Source of the DNA: a virus
Taxonomy: Duplodnaviria > Heunggongvirae > Uroviricota > Caudoviricetes
IMG/VR virus record: IMGVR_UViG_2939162341_000002
Reading direction: 5' to 3' (one strand)
Length of the DNA stretch: 37,948 nt
The notes under the pieces were generated by a model that was not told where the DNA came from, searched no databases, and worked only from the letters and a program-made list of their open reading frames with translations. This document shows positions 1 to 37,948 of this stretch, piece after piece; positions within the stretch are counted from its first letter, which is position 1, and every line of letters starts with the position of its first letter. A program made the translations under genes and the position numbers.

Positions 1-19
1 CTATTTGATAAATATTAAA

Positions 20-1315
20 TTAATTTTTCATTGCTTCGTTATGGGGCATGGTTGGGGCAAACTCGCTTAACTGTGTATTTAACAAAGCTACCTGTGCATT
101 ATTGTTTTCAGACATCCATTTTCCGTATACCTGAAATACCATTTGCGCATCTGCATGGCCCATCTGGTTTGCTATAAATGCCGGGTTAGCACCAGCTGTC
201 AGCGACCAGCAGGCATAAGTATGTCTCGACTGATATGATTTTCGATGGCGGAGTCCGGCACGTTTTATCGCTGCGTCCCACATCTGCCTTATTGAGTCAA
301 CGGTAAAATGGTCACCATAATTTTTTACTCTCGCTGACACTTCAGGTTGAAAAACAAAGGTGCATTTTTGTTTTTCTGTTCTGCCATACTCTCTGAGGTG
401 AACATCAATGATATGCTCTTTGCTCAGTCTCGTTAATGTCATCTGACTCCGGAGAGCGTCGATTGCTGGCTTAATAAGATGAATGACCCGATTGGTTCCC
501 GCCTGTGTTTTTGGTACCGTGAAACGGTCTTTTGCTAAATTTCTCCTGATCATCATTGTTCCATTTTTCAGATCTATGTCCTCCCATCCAAGTGCACACA
601 GCTCACCAGGGCGAACGCCAGTATAAACAGAAACACACCATAAATTTTTTGCTTGCTGATTTCTGCATGCATCGATAAGACGGATAAATTCCTCCCGCGA
701 AAGAGGATCCGGAATGGTTCTTGATTCCTTTAATGGCGAGATCCCCTTAAACGGATTATCTGCCAGGTAACCGTTATCAACACCAAACTGGAACACGGCG
801 TTAAGATTTGTCATGTAATTATTTACAGTTACAGCCGATCTCCCTGGTTGTGTAACAATATAGTTACTTTTGGGGATCTGGTATCCAGTCAGTAGCTCTT
901 TACGAACCTCCAGTAATTTTTCTTTATTAATCGATGAGGCAAGATTTTTTTCACCGATTATGCTCAGGATATTTTTGATGACGGCACGGTATGTGTTGAG
1001 TGATGTTTTGGAGACTTCAGTTTCTTTCAGTGCCAGAAATTTTTCAGCCAGTTCTTTTATGGTTAAATCTTGTCGGGCCTCACCAAATTTTTCCAGATTG
1101 CGTGAGGAGGGAAACTGTTTTGCATAGTCGAAAACACCAGTTTTTATTGCGTAACAAACAGAGGAGCGTAGTTCACCTGCAACGCGCCTGTTTTTTGCTG
1201 TGTCAGGAACCCCCAGATTTTCCCTGACTCTTACGCCTTTATAAACAAACCAGATACGTAATTTCCCTCCATGGTTTTCCACGCCTGTCGGATATTTCAT
1301 TTCAACTTCTCTCAT
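20..1315 (-). CDS. int: Phage integrase, tyrosine recombinase (lambda Int family)
   Basis: 431-aa ORF; C-terminal catalytic region with R...H..R..Y pattern (RHTYACWSLTAGANPAFIANQMGHADAQMVFQVYGKW); sits at prophage edge reading outward, next to an excisionase-like gene. Native start may be the internal MKYPTG. Confidence 0.9.
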   Translation of the reverse strand: MREVEMKYPTGVENHGGKLRIWFVYKGVRVRENLGVPDTAKNRRVAGELRSSVCYAIKTGVFDYAKQFPSSRNLEKFGEARQDLTIKELAEKFLALKETEVSKTSLNTYRAVIKNILSIIGEKNLASSINKEKLLEVRKELLTGYQIPKSNYIVTQPGRSAVTVNNYMTNLNAVFQFGVDNGYLADNPFKGISPLKESRTIPDPLSREEFIRLIDACRNQQAKNLWCVSVYTGVRPGELCALGWEDIDLKNGTMMIRRNLAKDRFTVPKTQAGTNRVIHLIKPAIDALRSQMTLTRLSKEHIIDVHLREYGRTEKQKCTFVFQPEVSARVKNYGDHFTVDSIRQMWDAAIKRAGLRHRKSYQSRHTYACWSLTAGANPAFIANQMGHADAQMVFQVYGKWMSENNNAQVALLNTQLSEFAPTMPHNEAMKN

Positions 1316-1334
1316 TAGTTAGTGTGGCTTTTAG

Positions 1335-1586
1335 TCAAGTAAGATGACGTCTTGGTCTCGCTGATGCCTGGCGCTCAATCCAGCGATCAATTTCTTCCAG
1401 GTTGTAAAAGCATGGACTGTTATCCCATGGCATACCGTCATGAGCGACATGCTTATATTCCCTTCCTTCCATAAACGATTTTTCCCGGGCCTTTTTTAAC
1501 GTACCTTTTTTTATTCCTTTCAGCGCAATTAACTGCTCTTCGGATACCCATTTGCCGGGAGAGACAATCATGATTACTTCGCTCAT
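1335..1586 (-). CDS. xis: Excisionase-like DNA-binding protein (Xis)
   Basis: 83-aa ORF immediately upstream of int on the same strand; shares the GREY segment with lambda Xis as I recall it; small basic protein in the canonical int-xis arrangement. Confidence 0.7.
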   Translation of the reverse strand: MSEVIMIVSPGKWVSEEQLIALKGIKKGTLKKAREKSFMEGREYKHVAHDGMPWDNSPCFYNLEEIDRWIERQASARPRRHLT

Positions 1587-1658
1587 CGATTTCTTTATCT
1601 CTTACATCAGACGAGCGCCGGTTGCAGAATACCAGTCACAACCGGCGACAGTTGAACA

Positions 1659-3587
1659 TTAAGAATCAGCCTGACTCGGGATCAGTTTTTGCCAGATAAC
1701 TGAAACGTATTTTGCCTGGTAACGGGCGTCATCAAGTGCATTATGGCGCTCACCTTCGAATGGAATAGCCGTTCTGGCATCGAAGTCTATGGCTTTCCCC
1801 AGCTCAACGATTGTGCGTACATCGCGATCGTTGTAGTAACGCCACGGGCAGGGGATCCCCTGCCGTTCGTATGAACGGCGCAAAATCGTGTTGTCGAAGT
1901 TGGCTCCATTTCCCCAAACCTGAACAAAAAATTCACCGGAGTTTTCGTCGATAAATTCCCGCAATTGTAACAGTGCATCATCTAACGGGATTTCATCGGT
2001 CATAATGGCAGATTGCGATTCGCGTGATTGCTTAAGCCACCATTTAATGGTGTCCCGATCAATGACTCCGCCAGCAGTTTCCAGATCGATAGTCTTACTA
2101 AATTCCGGTCCCATATCTCCGGTTTGCGGATCGAAAAATATTGCACCTATTGAGATGATCGGGGCATCAGGATTTTTTCCCATGGTTTCAAGGTCGATCA
2201 TTAGATGGTCACACGTCCTGCTGGTGGATGTGATTTCGTGATGACCGTTCACCTTAATTGGGTGATCTGCCGTCTCGCCAGTTTCATTATCGCTATTGTG
2301 ATGCTGATTGCCGCCAGTGTTCTCCTTGTGTGGATGTTCAGCGCCTTCCATTTCCTCCGGATCATCTTCCTGAACTTCAACCTGATACTCTTCATCGAAT
2401 GTTTCTTGGTATGTTGCGTCGCCCATCACCGCGCCACAATCAGGGCAGTTGCCGCCGCCGGTCTGACCGCAGGCGGTGCAGGCTTTTTCCACTTCCTGGT
2501 GCGCCACTGGTTCAGGCTGTTTCGTTTCTGGCTCGTTTTGTAACGCATTTGGACTGTTTTGTTCCGCTTTTTGGTAGTTCCGTTCCGATTCATGCTGGTT
2601 CTGGTTCACAGAATCGCGGGTCTGGATCCCCTTAACCCATTTCGGATCATTCGGGTCACTAATCCCTTCAACAAATTCACCACGTGATGCAGCAAGCAAC
2701 TTATCGGCGTCAGGCTGGCTGATATTGGCTGCCTGCATAATTTTGTTTACTTCGTCAGCGGTAACTTTTATCGGCTCTGGTTGTTCTGAATCTTCAGCGG
2801 TATCTACATTTTGCGGTAAGCCCGTGTATGTGCCATTTTTTCGGGCAAAATATTCTTCTTTTGTGATTTCAGTGGCGCCAGCAGCCAGTGCCTTATCCAG
2901 ACCAGAAAGTTTGTTTGCGCGACCGTATTTTTCTCCGTCCTTATCTGCGAAGAGGAAATAGAACGGCCCCTCACGCTCTACAGATGGTTCAGCTTCCGGC
3001 GCGGTTTCATTTTTTGGGATATCAGATACCTCAGTTTCCACTGCATCAGTTTGTGTTTCTGATGACTGGAGAACATCAACAGTGCCCAGGTCTGTTTCTT
3101 CATTCTCAAACACGCCCTTTGTCGTCAGGTATTCGCAGATATATTTGTTCAGTGCTACGGGATCTTTGTGAATGTCGATCGGACGCTCACGGACAAGGCC
3201 AAAAATAGTTTGGCGGTCGTAGCGAAGGGCATCAGGCTGTTTGCGCATTGATGCCGAGATACGCTTCCAGTCTTCGCGGTCGTTGTCGATAACTTCTTTT
3301 TTTGCCCAGCGATGGATGCTGCCGTCAATGTTTCCGGCATCCACATCACCAGGCCAGAGAGCGTAGGCCAGTTCGTCATCCAGTGTTTTCCATGTCTGCT
3401 TGTATTCGCGATGAATGGCAGCAATGACCGGGCTGATTTTTCCTGTTGAATTTTCAGTGTACTGTTGATTGGCTCTGGCGCGGGCGAGATCAACAACAGA
3501 CGTGTATTTTCCGGTTTCCTTGCGTTCACCTTCGCGACGTTTTTTCCAGATGCGCATCTCTGCCTGAATTTCGGGTGATGCTGCCAA
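1659..3587 (-). CDS. Prophage exonuclease with C-terminal DnaQ-like 3'-5' exonuclease (DEDDh) domain; 5' end runs into IS1, so likely truncated or promoter-less
   Basis: C-terminal region has DEDDh-type motifs (MIDLETMG, NGANFDNTILRR, HNALDDARYQAKY); central CxxC...CxxC zinc-ribbon (CTACGQTGGGNCPDCGAV). The ORF-finder start (TTG) lies inside the IS1 terminal repeat, so the native 5' end is lost or displaced. Confidence 0.75.
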   Translation of the reverse strand: MAASPEIQAEMRIWKKRREGERKETGKYTSVVDLARARANQQYTENSTGKISPVIAAIHREYKQTWKTLDDELAYALWPGDVDAGNIDGSIHRWAKKEVIDNDREDWKRISASMRKQPDALRYDRQTIFGLVRERPIDIHKDPVALNKYICEYLTTKGVFENEETDLGTVDVLQSSETQTDAVETEVSDIPKNETAPEAEPSVEREGPFYFLFADKDGEKYGRANKLSGLDKALAAGATEITKEEYFARKNGTYTGLPQNVDTAEDSEQPEPIKVTADEVNKIMQAANISQPDADKLLAASRGEFVEGISDPNDPKWVKGIQTRDSVNQNQHESERNYQKAEQNSPNALQNEPETKQPEPVAHQEVEKACTACGQTGGGNCPDCGAVMGDATYQETFDEEYQVEVQEDDPEEMEGAEHPHKENTGGNQHHNSDNETGETADHPIKVNGHHEITSTSRTCDHLMIDLETMGKNPDAPIISIGAIFFDPQTGDMGPEFSKTIDLETAGGVIDRDTIKWWLKQSRESQSAIMTDEIPLDDALLQLREFIDENSGEFFVQVWGNGANFDNTILRRSYERQGIPCPWRYYNDRDVRTIVELGKAIDFDARTAIPFEGERHNALDDARYQAKYVSVIWQKLIPSQADS

Positions 3588-3628
3588 CTTACTGATTTAG
3601 TGTATGATGGTGTTTTTGAGGTGCTCCA

Positions 3629-3904
3629 GTGGCTTCTGTTTCTATCAGCTGTCCCTCCTGTTCAGCTACTGACGGGGTGGTGCGTAACGGCAAAAGCACC
3701 GCCGGACATCAGCGCTATCTCTGCTCTCACTGCCGTAAAACATGGCAACTGCAGTTCACTTACACCGCTTCTCAACCCGGTACGCACCAGAAAATCATTG
3801 ATATGGCCATGAATGGCGTTGGATGCCGGGCAACTGCCCGCATTATGGGCGTTGGCCTCAACACGATTTTACGTCACTTAAAAAACTCAGGCCGCAGTCG
3901 GTAA
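3629..3904 (+). CDS. insA: IS1 InsA
   Basis: 91-aa ORF with Cys-rich N-terminus ([28 protein letters not shown]), recognised as IS1 InsA from memory. Confidence 0.93.
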
Positions 3905-4326
3905 CCTCGCGCATACAACCGGGCAGCGATGTGATTGTCTGCGCTGAAATGGACGAACAGTGGGGCTACGTAGGTGCTAAATCACGTCAGCGCTGGCTGT
4001 TTTACGCGTATGACAGGATACGGAGGACGGTTGTGGCGCACGTCTTCGGTGAACGCACTCTGGCCACACTGGAGCGTCTTATGAGCCTGCTGTCGGCCTT
4101 TGACGTGGTGATATGGATGACGGATGGCTGGCCGCTGTATGAATCCCGCCTGAAGGGAAAGCTGCACGTAATCAGCAAGCGTTACACTCAGCGCATTGAG
4201 CGACATAATCTGAATCTGAGACAACATCTGGCAAGGCTGGGACGGAAGTCACTGTCGTTCTCAAAATCGGTGGAGCTGCATGACAAAGTCATCGGGCATT
4301 ATCTGAACATAAAACACTATCAGTAA
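3823..4326 (+). CDS. insB: IS1 InsB (transposase, made as InsAB' by -1 frameshift)
   Basis: 167-aa ORF overlapping the insA 3' end in the -1 frame, characteristic of IS1. Confidence 0.93.
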
Positions 4327-4387
4327 GTTGGAGTCATTACCGAATCGCAACGTAGTTATTATCATATAACAGCTTGTTTCCTGATTT

Positions 4388-4417
4388 AGCCAGCCTCCCC
4401 AAAGGCTGGTTTTTTTC
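4388..4417 (+). terminator. Rho-independent terminator (hairpin plus T7 run)
   Basis: AGCCAGCCT-CCCCAAA-AGGCTGG followed by TTTTTTT, directly right of IS1. Confidence 0.6.
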
Positions 4418-4444
4418 TAATAAGTATCATTTCGGGTGGGGATT

Positions 4445-4969
4445 TTATTGTTTAACCCATAATAGTTCATTGACATTGAATCCCAACTTTTGAGCGGTAC
4501 GCACATAGTCTGCTTTTACATTATCTGGAATAGTTTGGGTCCTTGCCAGAATCCATAGGTATTCTCTGTTCGGACCACTGACAAGAGCATACTTATACTC
4601 ATCATCCAGCTTGATTACATTATAGCCACCATAGAAGGGGCCAAAAAACGAAACTTTCAACGCTGCAGTTTTAGTATCTCCAGTAAAGTATGCTTTACCT
4701 TCGCTCTCGCTCCATTTGTTTTTCGTTGGATCGTATCCACGGTTAAGTACGCGAATCCCTCCGTCGTTCCGTTTTTCATAAGTAGCGCTGACCTGTTCCA
4801 GACCACGTTCGAACCAGTTCTCGAGGCGAGCTATTTCATACCATTTTCCGAGGTAGCGGTTGGCGTCAAAATTTGTAATCGGCTGCACACCTTTAGGTGG
4901 TGTCGGGGCCTTACATGCTATAAGAGTGAAAGAGAGTGCAATGCCAGTCAACACAGGCCATAACTTCAT
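4445..4969 (-). CDS. Outer-membrane lipoprotein of the bacterial lipocalin family (Blc-like paralog)
   Basis: 174 aa; lipoprotein signal peptide with lipobox (LIAC); lipocalin motifs shared with E. coli Blc as recalled (FDANRYLGKWYEIAR, GKAYFTG, ALKVSFFGPFYGGYNVI). Confidence 0.85.
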   Translation of the reverse strand: MKLWPVLTGIALSFTLIACKAPTPPKGVQPITNFDANRYLGKWYEIARLENWFERGLEQVSATYEKRNDGGIRVLNRGYDPTKNKWSESEGKAYFTGDTKTAALKVSFFGPFYGGYNVIKLDDEYKYALVSGPNREYLWILARTQTIPDNVKADYVRTAQKLGFNVNELLWVKQ

Positions 4970-5161: not shown

Positions 5162-6121
5162 ATGATAAAAAAACCTGTGATTGGGATCAGCGGTTGTTTG
5201 GGCGGTTCTGCTGTTCGTTTTGATGGTGGTCACAAAAGAGATGACTTTTTAATGGACAAATTAGTGGAATGGGTAACATTCAGACCAGTATGTCCGGAAA
5301 TGGCTATAGGGCTGCCAGTTCCGCGTCCTGCTCTACGACTTGTGCGCTCGAAGCAAGGAAATATACGGATGTGTTTCAGCCACGACCAGAATGAGGATGT
5401 GACAGAGAGAATGACAGAGTTTAGTCGTTCTTATATGGACAAATTAAAGGATGTATCGGGGTTTGTGGTTTGTGCTAAATCTCCCAGCTGTGGCATGGAG
5501 CGCGTGCGTGTCTATGGTGAAAATGGTAATCGAGGTCGTAAAGATGGAGTGGGACTATTTACGAGCACTTTGATGGAAAAGTTTTCCTGGCTACCGGTTG
5601 AAGAGGATGGGCGATTACATGATCCAGTGCTTCGTGAGAATTTTATTGAAAGAGTTTTTGCTTTGCATGAGCTCAATCACCTTTACAAGGAGAAATTATC
5701 AAGAAGAGAGTTATTAGCTTTTCATAGTCGTTATAAGCTTCAGTTGTTGGCGCATAGCCAGGCAGGCTATAAAGATATGGGACCATTTGTGGCTGCAATA
5801 CACGAGTGGGCGGACCTTGAATCATACTTTGAGGTGTATCGTGATAATCTGATGGCGATTCTCAGAAAACCAGCATCACGTAAAAATCACACGAATGTGC
5901 TGATGCATATACAGGGGTATTTTAGTAATTACTTAAGTACACGCCAGCGTAAAGAGTTGAGCGAGGTTATACTTAACTATCGCTTTGGCACATTGCCTCT
6001 TCTTGCGCCGTTGACTCTGCTGAAGCATTATCTGGGTGAGTATCCTAATGATTACTTGCTTACACAGAATTACTTCGATCCCTATCCGGAAGAACTGGCT
6101 CTAAGACTGATGGTGAATTAA
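5162..6121 (+). CDS. DUF523 (TudS-like thiouracil desulfidase fold) fused to DUF1722 (YbgA-like) protein
   Basis: N-terminal Cys motifs typical of DUF523 (GISGCLGG, VCPEMAIGLPVPRP, KSPSCG); C-terminal half resembles YbgA (NHTNVLMHIQGYF, LPLLAPLTLLKHYL); strong RBS AGGGGGAGGA 2 nt upstream of the ATG. Confidence 0.7.
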   Translation: MIKKPVIGISGCLGGSAVRFDGGHKRDDFLMDKLVEWVTFRPVCPEMAIGLPVPRPALRLVRSKQGNIRMCFSHDQNEDVTERMTEFSRSYMDKLKDVSGFVVCAKSPSCGMERVRVYGENGNRGRKDGVGLFTSTLMEKFSWLPVEEDGRLHDPVLRENFIERVFALHELNHLYKEKLSRRELLAFHSRYKLQLLAHSQAGYKDMGPFVAAIHEWADLESYFEVYRDNLMAILRKPASRKNHTNVLMHIQGYFSNYLSTRQRKELSEVILNYRFGTLPLLAPLTLLKHYLGEYPNDYLLTQNYFDPYPEELALRLMVN

Positions 6122-6527
6122 CTGTATGCGATATCATCTGAAAGTGATGAGTTCCTGTATGCAGGATATTTACAATCGTAAAAACTACGCTATGATGCTC
6201 ATAGTGTCAGTTTTTATAAAAATCCTGTTCACGCTAAAGAAAACATTGAGATGCAATTTAATGTTGGTAAACATACCAGCCCCAAACGATTTTATTCAAT
6301 CTGTTTTTATATGAAGATATTTCAAGTGAATATTAAGAGCATATAATATTATTATTGCACGCAGCTATTATAATATAACAGATTAGTTTAATGATTTGTT
6401 TTTTGTGAGTTAAACACATGGTTTTATAGTTGTGATGCAATGAGATTTTCCTTATTGTTGAACTGGCGAATATTGATTTTCCACCTATACTTACCTGGTG
6501 TAACCCCAATGATATCAGGTGGATAAT

Positions 6528-7241
6528 ATGCCATACATATGTTCTATCATTTTGGTGTTGAACTCGTTTGGTGTCCGAATTGGTAAAGAAGATATTTTGT
6601 TTAAAAAAGGAAATGCTGTCCTCATTGAATACAATTTAAAAGATCTTTTTTCGTCAAATACAGATCATCTAATGATCGTAGATGTTGAGGAGAAAACAGT
6701 TAATGATTTCTTTAAAAACTACACACTCTCACCTTTTTCTGTAAGAAGGTTTTATCCGTCATACTTGATAGTAGAATGTGAAGATTTTTCATTGTTAAAG
6801 AACTTGGTTGCATGCTTGAATTGTGATAGCAAAACCGTGGATGTAGTTAGAAATCAAATATCACTTGCATGTCTTGCTGTCTTATCTTCAGAGAAAATAG
6901 TGCAAAGTTTTTTGTTCGGAAGTCTTAATAACTTAGGTTGTAAAGTTAAGGCTATTATTCACTCGGATATCTCAGCGTCATGGAGACTTTGTGATATATC
7001 TTCAAGATTATATATGAGCGAGAGTTTGTTAAAAAGAAAATTAAAAGACGAAGGATTATCGTTTAGTAAATTAATTCTTGAAGAACGAATGATGATGGCG
7101 CAAAGATTATTGATCTACAGTAACCATACTGTCGGCAAGGTGGCGGGAATATGCGGGTATGACAATGCATCATATTTTGTAAGTGTTTTTAGAAGATATT
7201 TTGGTGTGCCTCCGCACCAATATTTATCAAGATTTTCTTAG
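6528..7241 (+). CDS. AraC/XylS-family transcriptional regulator (AppY/PatE-like), AT-rich
   Basis: C-terminal AraC-type HTH region (MAQRLLIYSNHTVGKVAGICGYDNASYFVSVFRRYFGVPPHQY); N-terminus resembles AppY-type prophage regulators; visibly AT-rich. ORF-finder start is GTG at 6519; ATG at 6528 has RBS AGGTGG. Confidence 0.8.
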   Translation: MPYICSIILVLNSFGVRIGKEDILFKKGNAVLIEYNLKDLFSSNTDHLMIVDVEEKTVNDFFKNYTLSPFSVRRFYPSYLIVECEDFSLLKNLVACLNCDSKTVDVVRNQISLACLAVLSSEKIVQSFLFGSLNNLGCKVKAIIHSDISASWRLCDISSRLYMSESLLKRKLKDEGLSFSKLILEERMMMAQRLLIYSNHTVGKVAGICGYDNASYFVSVFRRYFGVPPHQYLSRFS

Positions 7242-8318: not shown

Positions 8319-9346
<1,028 letters not shown>

Positions 9347-9709
9347 ATTAATATTAAATCGGATTATTTTTAGCGCTGAATGTGAAATTTAAATAAAAAG
9401 GACTCTTCCATGAGTCAAAATCCTTGAAATCTTAAGGGTAAGATAAAAGGTCATTAGACAGAATGACACGTTTTATTAATAAATAAAGCTATTGTTTCAT
9501 TCGTGTGTTTTTCTTTACAAAAGTAATCCTTGCTATGGTTGGTTAATCATGCGTTAATGGTGTTCTGGTTTGTTACAAAATTATCTGAAGCAGTCATTGT
9601 TATAATTTTATTATTTGTACCTCTTGAGATTTCCTTGTTGGTTTTTCTCTCTGATATTTTTTTTCGGACCATTCTGCCCAAGGGCTAACTTCTTCAAAAG
9701 GTAATAATG

Positions 9710-9922
9710 ATGTCTAACAAAATGACTGGTTTAGTGAAATGGTTTAACCCTGAAAAAGGTTTTGGTTTCATCACGCCGAAAGATGGTAGCAAAGATGTGT
9801 TTGTCCATTTCTCAGCTATTCAGAGCAACGATTTCAAAACGTTAACTGAGAATCAGGAAGTCGAATTTGGTATTGAGAACGGACCTAAAGGCCCCGCGGC
9901 TGTTCATGTTGTGGCACTTTGA
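9710..9922 (+). CDS. cspI: Cold-shock protein, CspA family (CspI-like)
   Basis: 70 aa; [38 protein letters not shown] matches CspA-family RNP motifs; roughly 360 bp upstream non-coding leader as in cold-shock genes. Confidence 0.9.
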
Positions 9923-10121
9923 GGTAGAAAATATTACAAACCATATTCACTTTAGATGCCCGTGTTGCCATGGTTCTCAGTATAGAACATCATCTTTTGA
10001 TGTTTCTGACAGGAATCCTTTCGGGGCAAAATGTATCTTTTGTAAATCAATGATGATTACATTTGATAATATTTCACAATACTTAAATGTTAGCCGTCTG
10101 TCGTTAGATTTAAGAAAGTGA
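9906..10121 (+). CDS. ynfN: Small Cys-rich protein (YnfN-like, Qin-type)
   Basis: Contains [19 protein letters not shown]...CIFCKS; the first in-frame ATG (9906) overlaps the cspI 3' end, so the true start is uncertain. Confidence 0.5.
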
Positions 10122-10770: not shown

Positions 10771-11172
10771 TCTGTTTATAGCATTAGCATCAATTTCTCA
10801 TCAGATGCTATTCAACAATACAAATTACCCATAAACCTCGTTTTTACGGGGTTTTGTTATATTTAAACATTACCGAATAGGTATAAATCTCGATTGTCGA
10901 TGGTATTGGTTGTGTGACAATACCTAGTCTTTTCGGTATGCCTGAAGAGAATACAAACGACAGATTATGTAAGGGAAACGCGCTGAATCTTTCACTCTTT
11001 CATGCTGAGTGATTTGACGTTATATTTTTAGCCGTAAGTGAAGAGCAAACGCATGGAGCGACAAAATGCATAAAGATCAATACACTGATGCCCCCTCCCA
11101 GGAGCAGGTTCGTGTAAAAACTATGCTTAATAGCACCATTTCTGATCCTACCCACGTAATATGGACACAGGC

Positions 11173-12039
11173 CTAAGCGAGGTTCTTGTTTTCAAATTGT
11201 TCCGGACTGAGGCCGCCACACCAACTGTGCCGCCGCCACCGATTGTAATCACATTCGATATAATTAAACACCGTTGCCCGCATTATTTCCCGGCTGATAA
11301 AGTGTTCTCCATGGATACATTCCACTTTCAGCGAATGAAAGAAGCTTTCCACGCAGGCATTATCGTAGCAGCAACCTTTTGCGCTCATACTTCCACGCAG
11401 ATTATGCCGCTTCAGTTGCGCCTGATAATCTGCTGAACAGTACTGGCCTCCACGGTCCGTGTGAACGATAACGTTCCGGGGCCTCTTACGCCGCCACAGC
11501 GCCATCTGCAGGGCATCGCAGGCCAGTTGCGCCGTCATGCGTGGCGACATTGACCAGCCAATAACGGCACGTGACCACAGGTCAATGACCACTGCCAGAT
11601 ACAGCCAGCCTTCATCTGTACGTAAGTACGTGATGTCTCCTGCCCACTTCTGGTTCGGGCCACTGGCGTAAAAATCCTGCTCCAACAGATTTTCTGACAC
11701 AGGCAGGCCGTGTGCGCGGTAGCTGACCGGGCTGAACTTCCGGGAGGCCTTTGCCCTCAGTCCCTGACGGCGCAGGCTTGCCGCCACGGTTTTTACGTTA
11801 AAGGGGTAACCCTGAGCACGCAGTTCATCCGTCAGGCGTGGGGAACCGTAACGCTGTTTTGACCGGGTAAAAGCCGCGAGGACAACGCTGTCGCAGTGTT
11901 GGCGGAACTGCTGACGCGTGCTTATCCTTGTCCGCCGCTGACACCACGTATACCAGCCGCTGCGGGCCACCCGGAGCACGCGGCACATTGCTTTGATGCT
12001 GAACTCAGCCTGATGTTTTTCAATAAAGACATACTTCAT
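11173..12039 (-). CDS. insF: IS3 transposase OrfB (InsF, DDE integrase domain)
   Basis: 288-aa ORF recognised as IS3 InsF; overlaps orfA in the -1 frame as in IS3-family frameshift fusions. Confidence 0.93.
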
Positions 12040-12344
12040 TTCAGGCGCTTCGCGAAGTATGTCGCGGCCTTTTGGAGGATAGCCAGCTCTTCATCCCGTT
12101 CTGCCAGCTGGCGTTTGAGACGTGCAATCTCGGTAGACATCTCCAGTTCACGTTCAGAAGACGTCTGCTGATTTTGCTGTTTACTGCGCCAGTTGTAGAG
12201 TTGTGATTCATACAGGCTGAGTTCACGGGCTGCGGCAGTAACACCGATGCGTTCAGCAAGCTTCAGGGCTTCACTGCGAAATTCAGGCGAATGCTGTTTA
12301 CGGGGTTTTTTACTGGTTGATACTGTTTTTGTCATGTGAGTCAC
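12036..12344 (-). CDS. insE: IS3 transposase OrfA (InsE, HTH)
   Basis: ~100-aa ORF recognised as IS3 InsE ([32 protein letters not shown]...). Confidence 0.93.
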
Positions 12345-12401
12345 CTCTGACTGAGAGTTTACTCACTTAGCCGCGTGTCCACTATTGCTGGGTAAGATCA
12401 A

Positions 12402-24961: not shown

Positions 24962-25660
24962 ATGCAGGATATTCCACAGGAAACACATCATGAGACGACA
25001 CGCCTCACTCAGTCAGCCCAGGTGGTGCTCTGGGAAATCGATCTGACAGTGGTCGGTGGAGAACGTTATTTTTTCTGTAATGAGCAGAATGAAAAAGGTG
25101 AGTCTGTCACCTGGCAGGGGCGACAGTATCAGGCGTATCCCATTCAGGGGACGGGATTTGAACTGAACGGCAAGGGCAGTGCTGCCCGTCCGACACTGAC
25201 GGTTTCTAACCTGCACGGCATGGTCACCGGGATGGCGGAAGACCTGCAGAGTCTGGTCGGAGGAACGGTGGTCCGGCGTAAGGTTTACGCCCGTTTTCTG
25301 GATGCGGTGAACTTCGTCAACGGAAACAGTGACGCCGATCCGGAGCAGGAGGTGATCAGCCGCTGGCGCATCGAGCAGTGCAGCGAACTGAGCGCGGTGA
25401 GTGCCTCTTTTGTACTGTCCACGCCGACGGAAACGGACGGTGCCGTTTTTCCGGGACGTATCATGCTGGCCAACACCTGCACCTGGACCTATCGCGGTGA
25501 TGAGTGCGGTTATCACGGTCCGGCGGTCGCGGATGAATATGATCAGCCGACGTCCGATATCACGAAGGATAAATGCAGCAAATGCCTGAGCGGCTGTAAG
25601 TTTCGCAATAACGTCGGCAACTTTGGCGGCTTCCTTTCCATTAACAAACTTTCGCAGTGA
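24962..25660 (+). CDS. Minor tail protein L
   Basis: 232 aa; near-identical in pattern to lambda L as recalled, including the C-terminal Cys cluster (CTWTYRGDECGY...CSKCLSGCKFRNN). Confidence 0.92.
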   Translation: MQDIPQETHHETTRLTQSAQVVLWEIDLTVVGGERYFFCNEQNEKGESVTWQGRQYQAYPIQGTGFELNGKGSAARPTLTVSNLHGMVTGMAEDLQSLVGGTVVRRKVYARFLDAVNFVNGNSDADPEQEVISRWRIEQCSELSAVSASFVLSTPTETDGAVFPGRIMLANTCTWTYRGDECGYHGPAVADEYDQPTSDITKDKCSKCLSGCKFRNNVGNFGGFLSINKLSQ

Positions 25661-26409
25661 ATCCCATGACAGAGACAGAATCAGCGATTCTGGCGCACGC
25701 CCGGCGATGTGCGCCAGCGGAGTCGTGCGGCTTCGTGGTGAGAACGCCGGAGGGGGAAAGATATTTTCCCTGCGTGAATATCTCCGGTGAGCCGGAGGAT
25801 TATTTCCGGATGGCTCCGGAGGACTGGCTGCAGGCAGAAATGCAGGGTGAGATTGTGGCGCTGGTCCACAGCCACCCCGGTGGTCTGCCCTGGCTGAGTG
25901 AGGCCGACCGGCGGCTGCAGGTGCAGAGTGATTTGCCGTGGTGACTGGTTTGCCGGGGGGCGATTCACAAGTTCCGCTGTGTGCCACATCTTTCCGGGCG
26001 GCGCTTTGAGCACGGGGTGACGGACTGTTACACGCTGTTCCGGGATGCTTACCATCTGGCGGGGATTGAGATGCCGGATTTTCATCGCGAGGATGACTGG
26101 TGGCGTAACGGTCAGAATCTCTATCTGGATAATCTGGAGGCCACAGGGCTGTATCAGGTGCCGTTGTCAGCGGCGCAGCCGGGCGATGTGCTGATGTGCT
26201 GTTTTGGTTCATCGGTGCCGAATCATGCCGCCATTTACTGTGGTGACAGCGAGCTGCTGCACCATATTCCTGAACAACTGAGCAAACGAGAGAGGTACAC
26301 CGACAAATGGCAGCGACGCACACACTCCCTCTGGCGTCACCGGGCATGGCACGCATCTGCCTTTACGGGGATTTACAACGATTTGGCCGCCGCATCGACC
26401 TTCGAGTGA
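25657..26409 (+). pseudogene. Tail tip assembly protein K (MPN/JAMM plus NlpC/P60 domains) interrupted by an in-frame TGA at 25942..25944
   Basis: The two ORF-finder pieces (25657..25944 and 25981..26409) are in the same frame. The upstream piece carries HSHPGG (JAMM); the downstream piece carries the Cys region (DCYTLF). The stop follows a Trp codon (PW*LVCRG), consistent with TGG to TGA. Confidence 0.8.
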
Positions 26410-27013: not shown

Positions 27014-30000
27014 ATGGGTAAAGGCAGCAGTAAGGGGCATACTCCGCGCGAAGCGAAGGACAACCTGAAGTCCACGCAGTTGCTGAGTGTGATCGATGCC
27101 ATCAGCGAAGGGCCGGTTGAAGGTCCGGTGGATGGATTAAAAAGCGTGCTGCTGAACAGTACGCCAGTGCTGGACAGTGAGGGGAATACCAATATATCCG
27201 GCGTCACGGTGGTGTTCCGGGCCGGTGAGCAGGAGCAGACACCGCCGGAGGGATTTGAATCCTCCGGCTCCGAGACGGTGCTCGGTACAGAAGTGAAATA
27301 TGACACGCCGATCACCCGGACCATCACGTCGGCAAACATTGACCGTCTGCGTTTTACTTTCGGCGTGCAGGCACTGGTGGAAACCACCTCAAAGGGGGAC
27401 AGGAATCCATCGGAAGTCCGCCTGCTGGTTCAGATACAACGTAACGGTGGCTGGGTGACGGAAAAAGACATCACCATTAAGGGTAAAACCACTTCACAGT
27501 ATCTGGCCTCGGTGGTGGTGGATAACCTGCCGCCGCGCCCGTTCAGTATCCGGATGCGCAGGATGACGCCGGACAGCACCACAGACCAGCTGCAGAACAA
27601 AACGCTCTGGTCGTCATACACCGAAATTATCGATGTGAAACAGTGCTACCCGAACACGGCACTGGTCGGCGTGCAGGTGGACTCGGAGCAGTTCGGCAGC
27701 CAGCAGGTGAGCCGTAATTATCATCTGCGCGGGCGTATTCTGCAGGTGCCGTCGAATTATAACCCGCAGACGCGGCAATACAGCGGTATCTGGGACGGAA
27801 CGTTTAAACCGGCATACAGCAACAACATGGCCTGGTGTCTGTGGGATATGCTGACCCATCCGCGCTACGGCATGGGGAAACGTCTTGGTGCGGCGGATGT
27901 GGATAAATGGGCGTTGTATGTTATCGGCCAGTACTGCGACCAGTCAGTGCCGGACGGTTTTGGCGGCACGGAGCCGCGCATCACCTGTAATGCCTGGCTG
28001 ACCACACAGCGCAAGGCGTGGGATGTGCTCAGTGATTTCTGCTCGGCGATGCGCTGTATGCCGGTATGGAACGGGCAGACGCTGACGTTCGTGCAGGACC
28101 GACCATCAGATAAGGTGTGGACCTATAACCGCAGTAATGTGGTGATGCCGGATGATGGCGCGCCGTTCCGCTACAGCTTCAGCGCCCTGAAGGACCGCCA
28201 TAATGCCGTTGAGGTGAACTGGATTGACCCGAACAACGGCTGGGAGACGGCGACAGAGCTTGTTGAAGATACGCAGGCCATTGCCCGTTACGGTCGTAAT
28301 GTTACGAAGATGGATGCCTTTGGCTGTACCAGCCGGGGGCAGGCACACCGCGCCGGGCTGTGGCTGATTAAAACGGAGCTGCTGGAGACGCAGACCGTGG
28401 ATTTCAGCGTGGGTGCCGAAGGGCTTCGCCATGTGCCGGGTGATGTTATTGAAATCTGCGATGATGACTATGCGGGGATCAGCATCGGCGGGCGCGTGCT
28501 GGCTGTGAACAGCCAGACCCGGACGCTGACGCTCGACCGTGAAATCACGCTGCCATCCTCCGGTACCACGCTGATAAGCCTGGTTGACGGAAGTGGCAAT
28601 CCGGTCAGCGTGGAGGTCCAGTCCGTCACCGACGGCGTGAAGGTAAAAGTGAGCCGTGTTCCTGACGGCGTTGCCGGATACAGCGTATGGGGGCTGAAGC
28701 TGCCGACGCTGCGCCAGCGCCTGTTCCGCTGCGTGAGTATCCGTGAGAACGATGACGGCACGTATGCCATCACCGCCGTGCAGCATGTACCGGAAAAAGA
28801 GGCCATCGTGGATAACGGGGCGCACTTTGACGGCGACCAGAGCGGCACGGTGAATGGTGTCACGCCGCCAGCGGTGCAGCACCTGACTGCCGAAGTCACC
28901 GCAGACAGCGGGGAATATCAGGTGCTGGCGCGCTGGGACACGCCGAAGGTGGTGAAGGGGGTGAGCTTTATGCTTCGCCTGACCGTGGCAGCGGATGACG
29001 GCAGTGAGCGGCTGGTCAGCACGGCCCGGACGACGGAAACCACATACCGCTTCACGCAACTGGCGCCAGGGAACTACAGGCTGACAGTCCGGGCGGTAAA
29101 TGCGTGGGGACAGCAGGGCGATCCGGCATCGGTATCGTTCCGGATTGCCGCACCGGCAGCGCCGTCTCGGATTGAGCTGACACCGGGCTATTTTCAGATA
29201 ACCGCCACGCCGCATCTTGCGGTTTATGACCCGACGGTACAGTTTGAGTTCTGGTTCTCGGAAAAACGGATTACCGATATCAGGCAGGTTGAAACCACAG
29301 CCCGCTATCTTGGCACGGCGCTGTACTGGATAGCTGCCAGTATCAATATCAGGCCGGGCCATGATTATTATTTTTACGTTCGTAGTGTGAACACCGTTGG
29401 CAAATCGGCATTCGTGGAGGCTGTCGGTCGGGCGAGCGATGATGCGGAAGGTTACCTGGATTTTTTCAAAGGCAAGATAACCGAATCTCATCTCGGCAAG
29501 GAGTTGCTGGAAAAAGTCGACCTGACGGAGGATAACGCCAGCAAACTGGATGAGTTTTCGAAAGAGTGGAAGGACGCCAACGATAAGTGGAATGCCATGT
29601 GGGGCGTCAAAATTGAGCAGACCAAAGACGGCAAACATTATGTCGCGGGGCTTGGCCTCAGCATGGAGGATACAGAGGAAGGCAAACTGAGCCAGTTTCT
29701 GGTTGCCGCCAATCGTATCGCGTTTATTGACCCGGCAAACGGGAATGAAACGCCGATGTTTGTGGCGCAGGGCAACCAGATATTCATGAACGACGTGTTC
29801 CTGAAACGCCTGACGGCCCCCACCATTACCAGTGGTGGAAATCCACCGGTATTTTCCCTGACACCGGACGGAAAGCTGACCGCTAAAAATGCGGATATTA
29901 GTGGCAGTGTGAATGCGAACTCCGGGACGCTCAACAACGTCACGATAAATGAAAACTGTACGATTAAGGGCATGCTGGAGGCGAATCAGGTCAGAGGTGA

Positions 30001-34467: not shown

Positions 34468-34640
34468 TATCCTTCAAGCCCTGAAGGAGGCTGTTCCTGG
34501 TACGTTCAGACTGTTGTTGAGCTGGAAATCGCAACGGAGGAAGAAACTTCGTTGCTGGAAGTCTGGAAAAAGTATCGGGTGTTGCTGAACCGTGTTAATA
34601 CATCAGTAGTACCGGATATTGAATGGCCAGCACTGCCGTA
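34468..34640 (+). pseudogene. Remnant of a tail fibre assembly gene (tfa C-terminus), in frame directly after the stf stop
   Basis: Translation ...[39 protein letters not shown] matches the conserved Tfa C-terminus as recalled; no start codon or RBS of its own. Confidence 0.7.
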
Positions 34641-34738
34641 GGGTAAAACATATAAATTCTATAATTAGATGTATCTTTCCATTTACGGCAAGGAAGGGGG
34701 CTTGGAAGACGTAAAGCATCTCACACCGAGATTATTTT

Positions 34739-35329
34739 TTATATGTCAGGTGTCTGAAGTTTTGCTTTGGCTCTTAAAATGGTTTGCCGCGAGGTTTTGA
34801 ATTCCCGGGCAATGGCACTTATACTTACACCTGACTTAATTCGTTCGAATACCACCTGTTTCTGTTCTTCATTTAACACAGGTGGTCGACCAAAACGTTT
34901 CCCTGCGCCGCGGGCTCTTACTATCCCGGAATGAGTGCGTTCAAGTAAAAGGTCTCGTTCAAATTCAGCGACTGCTGAAATTACTTGCATCATCATTTTT
35001 CCTGTTGGACTGGTCAGGTCAATGCCACCCAATGCTAAGCAATGCACTCTGATACCTGTTTCGGTCAGTTGTTCCACTGTTTTCCTGATATCCATTGCAT
35101 TACAACCAAGGCGATCCAGTTTTGTCACAATCAATTGATCACCACATTTCAGGCGAGCAAGCAACCGGTTAAAACCAGGACGCTCACTGGTTGCTGCTGA
35201 GCCGCTAATGTGTTCTTCGATTATTTGCTGAGGTTTGATTTTAAAACCTGCACTTTCGATTTCCCGGCGTTGATTTTCGGTGGTCTGATCCAGCGTTGAT
35301 ATCCGACAGTAAGCAAAAATTCGAGACAT
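34739..35329 (-). CDS. Serine recombinase (resolvase/invertase family)
   Basis: 196 aa; N-terminal catalytic motif (YCRISTLDQ with Ser nucleophile, KLDRLG); C-terminal HTH ([20 protein letters not shown]); occupies the Pin-invertase position next to the tail-fibre genes. Confidence 0.88.
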
Positions 35330-35879: not shown

Positions 35880-36664
35880 GAAGATATTCCTTAAAATATT
35901 ATTGATTTTCATTGCGATATTGTATGTCTGATTCAGGATATGTTGACTTATACATCGGTTTTGTCTGGGTTATTGGATATGCCAATCCCTAATTTTATTA
36001 GGGCATGACTAAAAATGCTGAATATGATAAGGAGAGATGTGATTATCAGTATGCTGTTCATATAGCCTCGAATTAGTAATGTGTTATATATGATATAGTT
36101 GACAATTTTTATCTTGGGTGTTCTTAAAGTTCGTAGATAAACATTGTCGTTTCAGGTATACAGGAATGCTAACAGGTGGCAGCAAAAATCAGGCGGTTTA
36201 TGGCGCAAGCTGAAGCGGCAACTGCAAACTATCTTATGCAGAGACTCTACACGGATTGGGTTTAAAAGTATACATAGATAACAGTTTTTATCTGAAAAAG
36301 AAAAATATCAAGGTGATATAGCCTATATGCCTTTGATGCGGAGGAATGAATGTGATGGGAGTGATGTATCTGAATAGTTGAAAAACCGCAGACACGCCTT
36401 ATGCAAGAACGTGCTGCGGTTGGCTGGTAAATTTTTCGATAGTGTGAGTATTGAATGATTTCCAGCCGTTCTTGATTTTACGCATAAATCCATGAAAAAA
36501 CTACTTATCTGTTGGGGAGTTTTTTTGGGGCATATATGGGACAGAAATAGGCCCCAGATAGACACTGAGATCGAACTTAGGATGCTTTTTAAAAAATGCA
36601 ACTATCTGAAAAAACCTAGAAAACGCCAAGGAAACCACAGGATGGGAAAAAACACCTGTGAATT

Positions 36665-37948
36665 ATGGATTTCCAGTTATATTCGCTCGGCGCAGCGTTA
36701 GTGTTTCATGAAATATTTTTTCCTGAATCATCAACGGCAATGGCGTTAATTCTGGCAATGGGAACCTACGGTGCAGGTTATGTGGCGCGTATTGTCGGAG
36801 CATTTATTTTCGGCAAAATGGGCGACAGAATAGGGCGTAAAAAAGTGCTCTTTATTACCATCACCATGATGGGGATCTGTACCACCTTAATTGGTGTGTT
36901 ACCGACCTATGCACAGATTGGTGTTTTTGCACCCATCTTGCTGGTGACGTTGCGTATTATTCAGGGGTTGGGTGCAGGTGCGGAAATTTCCGGTGCCGGT
37001 ACGATGCTGGCGGAATATGCGCCAAAAGGTAAGCGCGGAATTATCTCCTCATTTGTGGCTATGGGAACTAACTGCGGAACCTTGAGCGCAACGGCAATCT
37101 GGGCCTTTATGTTCTTCATTCTCAGTAAAGAGGAACTGCTGGCGTGGGGATGGCGTATACCGTTCCTGGCGAGCGTTGTCGTGATGGTCTTTGCTATCTG
37201 GTTGCGTATGAATCTGAAAGAAAGCCCGGTCTTTGAGAAGGTTAACGACAGTAACCAACCGACAGCAAAACCTGCACCTGCTGGTAGCATGTTCCAGAGC
37301 AAATCCTTCTGGCTGGCAACAGGGCTGCGTTTTGGTCAGGCGGGTAACTCCGGGTTAATTCAGACTTTCCTTGCAGGCTATTTAGTGCAGACGTTATTGT
37401 TTAACAAAGCAATTCCAACAGATGCATTGATGATCAGTTCGATTCTCGGCTTTATGACCATTCCGTTCCTTGGTTGGTTATCCGATAAAATTGGTCGCCG
37501 GATCCCGTATATTATTATGAATACCTCCGCGATTGTGCTGGCATGGCCAATGCTTTCTATCATTGTAGATAAAAGCTATGCCCCGAGCACCATTATGGTT
37601 GCACTGATTGTGATTCATAACTGTGCGGTGCTGGGATTATTTGCTCTGGAAAACATTACCATGGCAGAAATGTTCGGCTGTAAAAACCGCTTTACCCGGA
37701 TGGCTATTTCTAAAGAAATTGGTGGTCTTATCGCTTCCGGTTTTGGTCCTATCCTGGCGGGTATTTTCTGCACCATGACGGAATCCTGGTATCCGATCGC
37801 CATTATGATCATGGCATATTCAGTGATTGGTTTAATCTCTGCGCTGAAAATGCCAGAGGTGAAAGACCGTGATTTAAGTGCGCTGGAAGACGCTGCGGAA
37901 GATCAACCGCGTGTTGTAAGAGCTGCGCAACCTTCCAGAAGTCTGTAA
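36665..37948 (+). CDS. ydfJ: MFS metabolite:H+ symporter (YdfJ-like), N-terminally truncated host gene at the prophage junction
   Basis: 427 aa with MFS motifs (GKMGDRIGRKK, multiple TM segments); begins mid-way through the first transmembrane helix with no RBS, consistent with a lost 5' end; runs to the window end. Confidence 0.85.
   Translation: MDFQLYSLGAALVFHEIFFPESSTAMALILAMGTYGAGYVARIVGAFIFGKMGDRIGRKKVLFITITMMGICTTLIGVLPTYAQIGVFAPILLVTLRIIQGLGAGAEISGAGTMLAEYAPKGKRGIISSFVAMGTNCGTLSATAIWAFMFFILSKEELLAWGWRIPFLASVVVMVFAIWLRMNLKESPVFEKVNDSNQPTAKPAPAGSMFQSKSFWLATGLRFGQAGNSGLIQTFLAGYLVQTLLFNKAIPTDALMISSILGFMTIPFLGWLSDKIGRRIPYIIMNTSAIVLAWPMLSIIVDKSYAPSTIMVALIVIHNCAVLGLFALENITMAEMFGCKNRFTRMAISKEIGGLIASGFGPILAGIFCTMTESWYPIAIMIMAYSVIGLISALKMPEVKDRDLSALEDAAEDQPRVVRAAQPSRSL

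Follow-up and report, generated by a model that had tools for sequence, protein, structure and literature searches.

An IS1-associated deletion of the early region in a lambdoid prophage at the Qin locus of Escherichia coli

The stretch of DNA analysed here, 37,948 nucleotides of IMG/VR record IMGVR_UViG_2939162341_000002 and hereafter called the window, amounts in essence to one entire lambdoid prophage, located at the Qin locus (between rspB and ydfJ) of E. coli and annotated in its context as rspB followed by int and ending in the truncated ydfJ'. At its left end stand a full-length tyrosine integrase gene (20..1315, minus strand; 431 aa, Pfam Arm-DNA-bind_2 and Phage_integrase) and an excisionase gene (1335..1586, minus strand; 83 aa, Pfam DUF1233 putative excisionase, 1.6e-31). 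The integrase shares 429 of 431 residues with that of phage HannyBb and the two Xis proteins are identical (83/83); altogether 27.4 kb of the window align to HannyBb at 95-99.7%. A candidate att core, TTATGGATTTC, lies at 36663..36673, the putative attR at the joint of prophage and ydfJ', and its second copy occurs 29 bp before window position 1. On its own an 11-bp core is weak evidence; both joints, however, agree with the HannyBb attP region. With the core at both joints, the rspB/ydfJ' context and the colinearity with HannyBb, the element is placed at the Qin attachment site.

Beyond xis lies the remnant of an exonuclease gene (1659..3573, minus strand), of which codons ~187-823 of 823 are kept; the first 186 codons are gone, and the N-terminus, the start codon and the promoter are deleted. 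Its open reading frame, 1659..3587 on the minus strand, stays open into the neighbouring IS1. Aligned to the HannyBb exonuclease (823 aa), the product covers residues 187..823, 634 of 637 being identical, and the full-length exonuclease of a prophage relative matches the window in tblastn at 98.6% over residues 183-823. PGAP calls the remnant a pseudogene without N-terminus. By its predicted Rv2179c-like domain (Pfam, 1.2e-66) the enzyme is a DnaQ-like 3'-5' exonuclease, not one of the lambda Exo or RecE type.

Insertion sequences of the IS1 family are about 768 bp long, are bounded by imperfect inverted repeats of about 23 bp and carry insA with an overlapping insB' that is reached by a -1 frameshift at an A6C motif. 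The copy that interrupts the exonuclease gene is complete and lies on the plus strand: read from the sequence, it extends from 3574 (GGTGATGCTGCCAACTTACTGAT) to 4341 (ATCAGTAAGTTGGAGTCATTACC), 768 bp, and its 23-bp terminal repeats (IRL 3574..3596, IRR 4319..4341) agree at 19 of 23 positions. On the plus strand follow insA at 3629..3904 (Pfam Zn_ribbon_InsA, 1.3e-21; HTH_Tnp_IS1, 4.7e-31), the frameshift motif AAAAAAC at 3880..3886, again read from the sequence, and the insB' frame, which ends at 4326 (DDE_Tnp_IS1, 2e-75). For the same copy in the near-identical genome ZH142, PGAP reports an intact transposase with programmed frameshift and no pseudogene flag. Because insA, insB' and the frameshift site are all intact, the element looks transposition-competent. 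Its identity is 95% to IS1A/IS1B and 100% to further copies of its own variant; compared with IS1A it is a mosaic, identical at positions 1-344 and ~8% divergent at 345-750. Identical 768-bp copies stand at this locus in strains HUE1 and WCHEC050613. We considered the mosaic as a trace of recombination between two copies and dropped the idea: identical copies also exist elsewhere, as on a HUE1 plasmid, so the mosaic was not created here.

Simple insertion of IS1 duplicates 8-9 bp (rarely more) of target DNA directly at both ends of the element. The two flanks in question are TGAATTTCG at the left deletion junction (3565..3573), invariant in 14/14 genomes with this IS1 copy, and GAATCGCAA at the right deletion junction (4342..4350), which in relatives is found 52 bp downstream of the Q stop codon; in register they agree at 1 of 9 positions. 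When the flanks were re-inspected for an 8-9-bp repeat with shifted boundaries allowed, the best 8-bp offset paired GAATTTCG with GAATCGCA at 5/8, so no target-site duplication is present, and a hidden one was rejected. At the left boundary 2 bases could belong to either side, since the exonuclease gene, where uninterrupted, continues with GG too. Simple insertion accounts neither for the differing flanks nor for their separation by 6.4-9 kb in IS-free relatives. The first-pass annotation had described a complete IS1 at 3574..4341 with both terminal repeats, an exonuclease frame running directly into its end and differing 9-bp flanks, and all of this is borne out; the matching 8 to 9-bp direct repeat that it named as evidence against its reading was looked for in vain.

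To the right of IS1, a hairpin followed by a T run resembles an intrinsic terminator (4388..4421, plus strand; ~100 bp downstream of Q in relatives), and we regard it as a candidate tR'-type terminator that would have been parted from the upstream Q and promoter region. A search for pR' in the 98 bp that separate Q from this terminator returned weak consensus matches alone. Three moron genes follow, for a lipocalin (Blc-like; 4445..4969, minus strand; Pfam Lipocalin_2, 7.5e-43), a YbgA-family protein with a 2-thiouracil desulfurase domain and DUF1722 (5162..6121, plus strand; Pfam) and an AraC-type HTH regulator (6519..7241, plus strand; Pfam HTH_18 1.8e-17, HTH_AraC 1.4e-12). The same block sits between Q and holin in IS1-free relatives, where it is native, and it was therefore not brought by IS1. 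The genes right of IS1 had at first been read as cargo rather than early genes: early genes are indeed lacking there, but the supposed cargo consists of native prophage morons, and it is as such, not as IS1 cargo, that the three genes should be annotated. The AraC-type regulator is no homolog of cI or Cro; it occurs in relatives that have a cI-like repressor as well.

What has been lost between the two flanks can be seen in IS1-free prophages at the same locus. In CH4784 the last base of the left flank is 10529 and the first of the right flank is 16932, both with 99.8-99.9% identity to the window, and the 6,402 bp between them are filled with early genes, Q ending at 16879. In strain S1 the flanks end and resume at 8888 and 17935, 9,046 bp apart. 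Phage HannyBb (PP925841.1) aligns to window positions 1..3575 at 99.75%, stopping at the IS1 end, and in both it and phage mEp460_ev081 (LR597641.1) the missing early region is present, 95-97.5% identical to that of the prophage relative. HannyBb, unlike the studied prophage, has another Q type and another Q-to-holin insert and lacks the lipocalin/YbgA/AraC block, and thus defines the left endpoint of the deletion, not the right. In relatives the deleted stretch holds the exonuclease 5' end, ydfD, dicB, the DicF sRNA and cI-like and Cro/DicC-like regulators; it also holds a YdaT/cII-like gene, an O-like replication gene, DUF977, QueH, DUF968 and Q. Since both IS1 flanks are colinear in the relatives and in the two deposited phages, with 6.4-9 kb of early DNA between them, these alignments establish an IS1-associated deletion of the early region together with its endpoints and content; the loss amounts to at least 6.4 kb.

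Could the early genes have moved elsewhere? Among 21 early-region proteins from three relatives, the exonuclease alone matched the window in tblastn, all others giving noise (E >= 0.07), and tblastn, Pfam and PGAP revealed no repressor, Cro, cII-like, O-like or Q homolog in the window. DicF, detected with Rfam in the deleted interval of a relative, was not found in the window. Relocation within the window was accordingly rejected, the sole HTH gene being the AraC-type one, and the window spans the whole element, so that no early genes can be hidden in it beyond the window. The proposal of the first-pass annotation, an IS1-associated deletion of the whole early region in an element without recognisable repressor, Cro, O or Q homologs, is upheld both by this search and by the alignment to intact relatives that it had called for, in which the flanks lie 6,402 bp (CH4784) to 9,046 bp (S1) apart; early genes outside the window, which would have spoken against it, are not possible in an element that the window covers completely.

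Both junctions are present at 99.9-100% in 12 independently assembled complete genomes, and an assembly error is thereby ruled out. ZH142 differs from the window by 6 substitutions and carries an IS1B at the 3' end of ydfJ that the window lacks, so the two belong to sister strains. HUE1 and WCHEC050613 have the identical left junction next to their identical IS1, and their right junction is displaced, to window position 4650 in HUE1 (308 bp more lost) and to 5111 in WCHEC050613 (769 bp more lost). Nested deletions that extend in one direction from a fixed IS end are the classical hallmark of adjacent deletion, and these further rightward losses at the IS1 end bear that hallmark of an IS1-promoted event; the nested series concerns the secondary deletions in these two strains alone. 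We also searched for a precursor, with queries joining the Q-side flank, a putative target-site duplication and the IS1 left end, or the IS1 right end, a putative duplication and the exonuclease 5' remainder. None of 5,426 complete E. coli genomes had, at one or the other junction, an IS1 bearing a 9-bp duplication beside an intact early region; in these genomes the junction queries gave split two-piece matches to IS1 at other nearby positions and none exact; in metagenome contigs, both junctions written as degenerate patterns (0-14 bp spacer, either IS1 orientation) gave 0 hits each. As no precursor was found, neither the succession of steps nor the direction in which the primary deletion ran has been seen directly.

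What could be the mechanism that left this scar? We consider it probable that the deletion was promoted by the transposase as an adjacent deletion, IS1 having transposed replicatively within one molecule. An intact mEp460/HannyBb-like prophage at the Qin (ydfJ) locus would first have received a simple IS1 insertion, most likely within the exonuclease gene at the present invariant left junction. One end of the element, most likely the right one, would then have attacked a target elsewhere in the same molecule, and the intervening DNA would have been lost with one copy of the target-site duplication. The outcome would be a single intact IS1 with codon 187 of the exonuclease on one side and, on the other, the sequence that begins 52 bp downstream of Q. 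The intact IS1 at the junction, the flanks colinear with IS-free relatives with the missing segment between them, the lack of a duplication, the nested deletions, the apparent competence of the element and the junctions shared by 12 genomes all argue for such a course, although we infer the transposition mechanism and the event order, as well as the phenotype.

Missing target-site duplications are generally put down to adjacent deletion or to IS-IS recombination, the latter being given as a frequent cause (PMC11708052). It is possible, if somewhat unlikely, that two directly repeated IS1 copies, inserted independently in the exonuclease gene and just downstream of Q, underwent RecA-dependent recombination, which would drop the interval together with one IS1 and leave the survivor flanked by half of each duplication. 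The end product, a complete IS1 with mismatched flanks, is exactly the same. The host lineage is rich in IS1 (at least 40 matching pieces per record), and double hits are plausible given that IS1 occurs at several early-region sites in other Qin-locus prophages: dicB'-IS1-flxA' in 23CRST007, rspB'-IS1A-ydfB' in HS, and between xis and exo in TUM17668. Such recombination, however, requires two insertions besides the exchange itself, and neither the 5,426 E. coli genomes nor the metagenome contigs contain an IS1 with a duplication at either junction. The mosaic structure relative to IS1A does not favour it either, not being a local hybrid in view of the identical copies elsewhere, as on the HUE1 plasmid. 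The losses in HUE1 and WCHEC050613 would each demand an extra insertion and recombination at the same IS1 end; from these nested deletions it is clear that deletion anchored on IS1 takes place here, but they are no proof that the primary event took the same route.

Two other explanations carry far less weight. Movements of IS elements without duplication, accompanying large rearrangements, have been proposed for some IS5 and IS481 events (PMC11708052), and by analogy IS1 could have been captured in one step where the DNA broke while the early region was being deleted independently of any IS, the duplication never having been made. While the failure to find a two-step intermediate in the E. coli genomes and metagenome contigs agrees with a capture, we hold it to be highly improbable: for IS1 such a model has not been established, an ordinary IS-anchored process is seen at this very copy in the later nested deletions, and all 14 LTEE cases in the same study resolved into ordinary adjacent deletions. 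The first impression of non-phage genes directly after IS1 is the sole support for supposing no deletion at all, that is, an early region never present here and an IS1 composite transposon that brought the lipocalin/YbgA/AraC genes, or else an assembly artefact at a repeat. This supposition is already refuted by the comparison with CH4784 and S1 and by the 12 genomes with identical junctions, assembled independently: the supposed cargo lies between Q and holin in IS1-free relatives, a second IS1 bounding it is absent, and the exonuclease gene is cut mid-codon.

Transposase-promoted or not, the deletion explains why a nearly complete 36.7-kb prophage has no control region. Further lesions are independent of it. 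A 1258-bp IS3 (11143..12400, minus strand) has differing 3-bp flanks (TTC / AAA), and ~1.03 kb of HannyBb sequence is missing there, among it the initial two thirds of the small-terminase gene; a stop codon interrupts tail gene K. Lacking the early control genes and with both structural lesions, the prophage is defective, although int/xis, the lysis cassette, the morons and most structural genes are kept. Judged by its gene content, an element without immunity switch, replication initiator and late antiterminator would be fixed and defective, and neither induction nor replication nor late transcription is to be expected of it. Excision may stay possible: its absence, expected in the first-pass annotation, is unproven because Int and Xis are full length and nearly identical to those of HannyBb. 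With the immunity switch, the replication genes, Q and the toxic dicBF-ydfD genes lost, the prophage should be regarded as fixed and non-inducible rather than as a live temperate phage.

IS1-driven prophage decay of this type is already known in kind and a textbook example, to which the nested deletions of the sister strains make a mildly useful addition by recording decay step by step. We tentatively raise the idea that IS1 is a recurrent and possibly selected agent of domestication of Qin-locus prophages, on the basis of at least three independent IS1-bounded deletions (this one and those of HS and 23CRST007), which in different lineages take away the toxic dicB/dicF/ydfD and immunity region in part or completely. 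The state of the window, the loss of 308 bp more and the loss of 769 bp more, all kept in the present lineage, could serve as a natural time series in which one IS copy erodes a prophage.

Among known systems, the closest are the IS1-promoted adjacent deletions, classical cases of which were reportedly described by Reif and Saedler in the gal region of E. coli. IS1-adjacent deletions of flhDC are documented in E. coli MG1655 (PMC12844343). The likeness consists in the intact IS1 kept, the lack of a duplication, the kilobase loss on one side and the nested series; what differs is the target, here a prophage early region, and that the mechanism is read from end products. With HannyBb the prophage shares alignable int, xis, exo, lysis, terminase, head and tail genes. 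With K-12 Qin and other Qin-locus prophages it shares the locus itself, from rspB to ydfJ', which is highly variable in length (11-97 kb; PMC6379469), and the genes essD/rrrQ/rzpQ, cspI, ynfN, gnsB, pinQ, ydfK and ynfT. Its Qin-locus relatives carry dicB-dicF-ydfD and a dicA/dicC-type immunity region. K-12 Qin has kept its dicBF/immunity region and lost the integrase and most structural genes, whereas the present prophage is the reverse: int, xis and almost every head and tail gene are still there, and the early, immunity and replication genes and Q are lost entirely.

Comparison with IS1-free relatives at the same locus shows that the two flanks of the IS1 copy are parts of one colinear prophage, which supports, with refinements, the proposal of the first-pass annotation that an IS1-associated deletion had removed the early region. 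Alignment with intact related prophages, which that annotation had called for, defines the loss: in CH4784 (L002) sequence matching the left flank runs as far as 10529 and sequence matching the right flank starts again at 16932 (99.8-99.9% identity), leaving 6,402 bp in between that the window lacks, while in S1 the flanks stand 9,046 bp apart, an IS3 included. The content of the missing interval was compiled from CH4784, S1, TUM17668 (another Qin-locus prophage) and the deposited lambdoid phage genome HannyBb (PP925841.1). Of the exonuclease gene the first 557 bp are lost; ydfD, dicB and small early-left ORFs are missing too, as is the DicF sRNA, which Rfam detects in CH4784 (72.5 bits) but not in the window. 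The interval further holds genes for a cI-like HTH repressor and a Cro/DicC-like regulator, a YdaT/cII-like gene, an O-like replication gene, a DUF977/Ren-like gene, a methyltransferase fragment, QueH, DUF968/HNH and the antiterminator Q. The right endpoint of the deletion falls 52 bp beyond the Q stop codon and 47 bp short of a plus-strand terminator-like hairpin (4388..4411, with a T run); it is between the Q stop and this hairpin that a lambdoid prophage would be expected to have its late promoter/qut and tR' elements. When 21 early-region proteins were compared with the window by tblastn, the exonuclease was the only match, in agreement with the earlier claim that no repressor, Cro, O/P or Q homolog is present. 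The window has a single HTH gene, 6519..7241, which is of the AraC type and occurs alongside a cI-like repressor in relatives.

Could the early genes reside elsewhere in the element? The window matches E. coli ZH142 at 99.98% identity over 37,928 bases, with six substitutions, and the annotated context places the element between rspB and a 5'-truncated ydfJ, the Qin prophage locus. HannyBb (45.3 kb) aligns with 27.4 kb of the window at 95-99.7%, covering int, xis, exo, lysis, large terminase, portal, head and tail genes. The prophage joints share the core TTATGGATTTC, located 29 bp before window position 1 on the left and at 36663..36673 on the right, and each joint matches the attP region of HannyBb. 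With both joints located, the window takes in the whole prophage of about 36.7 kb, so that early genes cannot hide in a part of the element beyond it. Qin-locus prophages are known to range from 11 to 97 kb (PMC6379469).

The IS1 itself, read from the sequence, is complete at 3574..4341 (768 bp). As first described, both terminal repeats are present, the left being GGTGATGCTGCCAACTTACTGAT and the right, in reverse complement, GGTAATGACTCCAACTTACTGAT, with 19/23 positions matching. The insA gene (3629..3904) and the insB' frame, which runs to 4326, yield three IS1 Pfam domains (E = 1e-21 to 2e-75), an AAAAAAC frameshift motif lies at 3880..3886, and PGAP annotates the same copy in the near-identical ZH142 genome as an intact transposase with programmed frameshift. 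The 9-bp flanks do differ, TGAATTTCG on the left (3565..3573) and GAATCGCAA on the right (4342..4350), and their re-inspection in all registers gave no target-site duplication (TSD). The left boundary carries a 2-base ambiguity because the uninterrupted exonuclease sequence likewise continues with GG. Relative to IS1A the copy is mosaic, with 0-1 differences at positions 1-344 and 33-36 differing sites (~8%) at positions 345-750; the same variant is found unchanged elsewhere, on a HUE1 plasmid for instance, and the mosaic is therefore uninformative on a local hybrid origin.

To the left, the exonuclease frame runs straight into the IS1 end, as had been noticed: the minus-strand ORF 1659..3587 remains open into IS1 and encodes residues 187-823 of the 823-aa prophage exonuclease, retaining the C-terminal Rv2179c-like 3'-5' exonuclease domain. 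PGAP already marks this gene as a pseudogene adjoining IS1. To the right lie genes for a lipocalin (4445..4969, minus strand), YbgA (5162..6121) and the AraC-type regulator. This block was initially taken for cargo; phage early genes are indeed absent from it, but IS1-free relatives, E. coli HS among them, have the same genes between Q and holin, which makes these genes native morons of this prophage type, not imports by IS1.

The element lacks the repressor/Cro switch, the replication initiator, Q and the dicBF-ydfD module, and we infer that it would be incapable of induction, replication, late transcription and packaging. Excision may have survived, Int and Xis being identical to those of HannyBb at 429/431 and 83/83 residues; the normal early-left promoter of int/xis is gone. 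A complete IS3 (11143..12400, 1258 bp), with flanks TTC / AAA and no TSD, stands where ~1.03 kb of HannyBb (44048..45080) are missing, and marks a second IS-associated deletion in this prophage. The small-terminase gene has lost its first 119/179 codons there, two thirds of its length, with 60/179 left, and cos was probably also within the replaced segment. In the homolog of tail gene K (25666..26409, a C40 peptidase), 92 codons are followed by an in-frame stop in place of W. Only a 3' fragment of the tail-fibre assembly gene is left (34516..34641), beside an intact pinQ-type DNA invertase (34739..35329), which suggests that an invertible tail-fibre segment was lost or rearranged. Long antisense ORFs opposite tail genes K/I (25013..26356, minus strand, 447 aa) and J (28106..29638, minus strand, 510 aa) are probably not genes. 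Within 9552..9968, a cspA-type thermoregulator 5' UTR (Rfam, 109.8 bits) lies upstream of the prophage cold-shock gene cspI.

What could have produced this arrangement? Two routes are established by which a deletion can come to be marked by a lone intact IS whose flanks do not match: transposase-promoted adjacent deletion (intramolecular replicative transposition) and homologous recombination between two IS copies in direct orientation. A nested set of deletions that all start from a single IS end is the classical mark of the former. According to PMC11708052, these two processes usually account for absent TSDs. Sister genomes offer the most informative evidence on the mechanism. Both junctions are common to twelve complete genomes, and two further genomes carry the identical 768-bp IS1 and left junction with the right junction displaced rightward. 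In HUE1 (L005, 4068/4069) it corresponds to window 4650, with 308 bp more lost and the lipocalin 3' end cut; in WCHEC050613 (L008, 5568/5569) it corresponds to window 5111, with 769 bp more lost and the whole lipocalin gene removed. Because these deletions are nested on a fixed left junction, we lean towards adjacent deletion, in which IS1 would first have inserted at the invariant junction, inside the exonuclease gene, and a deletion extending rightward from it would have followed. Recombination between two direct IS1 copies would have removed the early region with the same end product, and seems the less likely course. The order of insertion followed by rightward loss is what we infer; a TSD-bearing precursor was not found in 5,426 complete E. 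coli genomes or in metagenome contigs. ZH142 additionally carries an IS1B at the 3' end of ydfJ (L001, 42929), where the window (37929..37948) is uninterrupted, further evidence of continuing IS1 activity within the lineage.

IS1-adjacent deletions have long been known, for instance at flhDC (PMC12844343), and the deletion in the window is a further instance of this process. Two independent IS1-bounded deletions affect the same prophage family and locus: E. coli HS (L006, 6019..7258) has a rspB'-IS1A-ydfB' joint with the loss of attL, int, xis, exo and dicB, and 23CRST007 (L007, 4139..5160) a dicB'-IS1-flxA' joint with the loss of the immunity region. What goes mildly beyond the known process is that IS1 has repeatedly eroded the toxic dicBF/immunity region and that the window's lineage shows a series of stepwise deletions. 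In the LTEE such deletions begin small and then grow (PMC11708052), and it is these growing deletions that the nested series in HUE1 and WCHEC050613 resembles.
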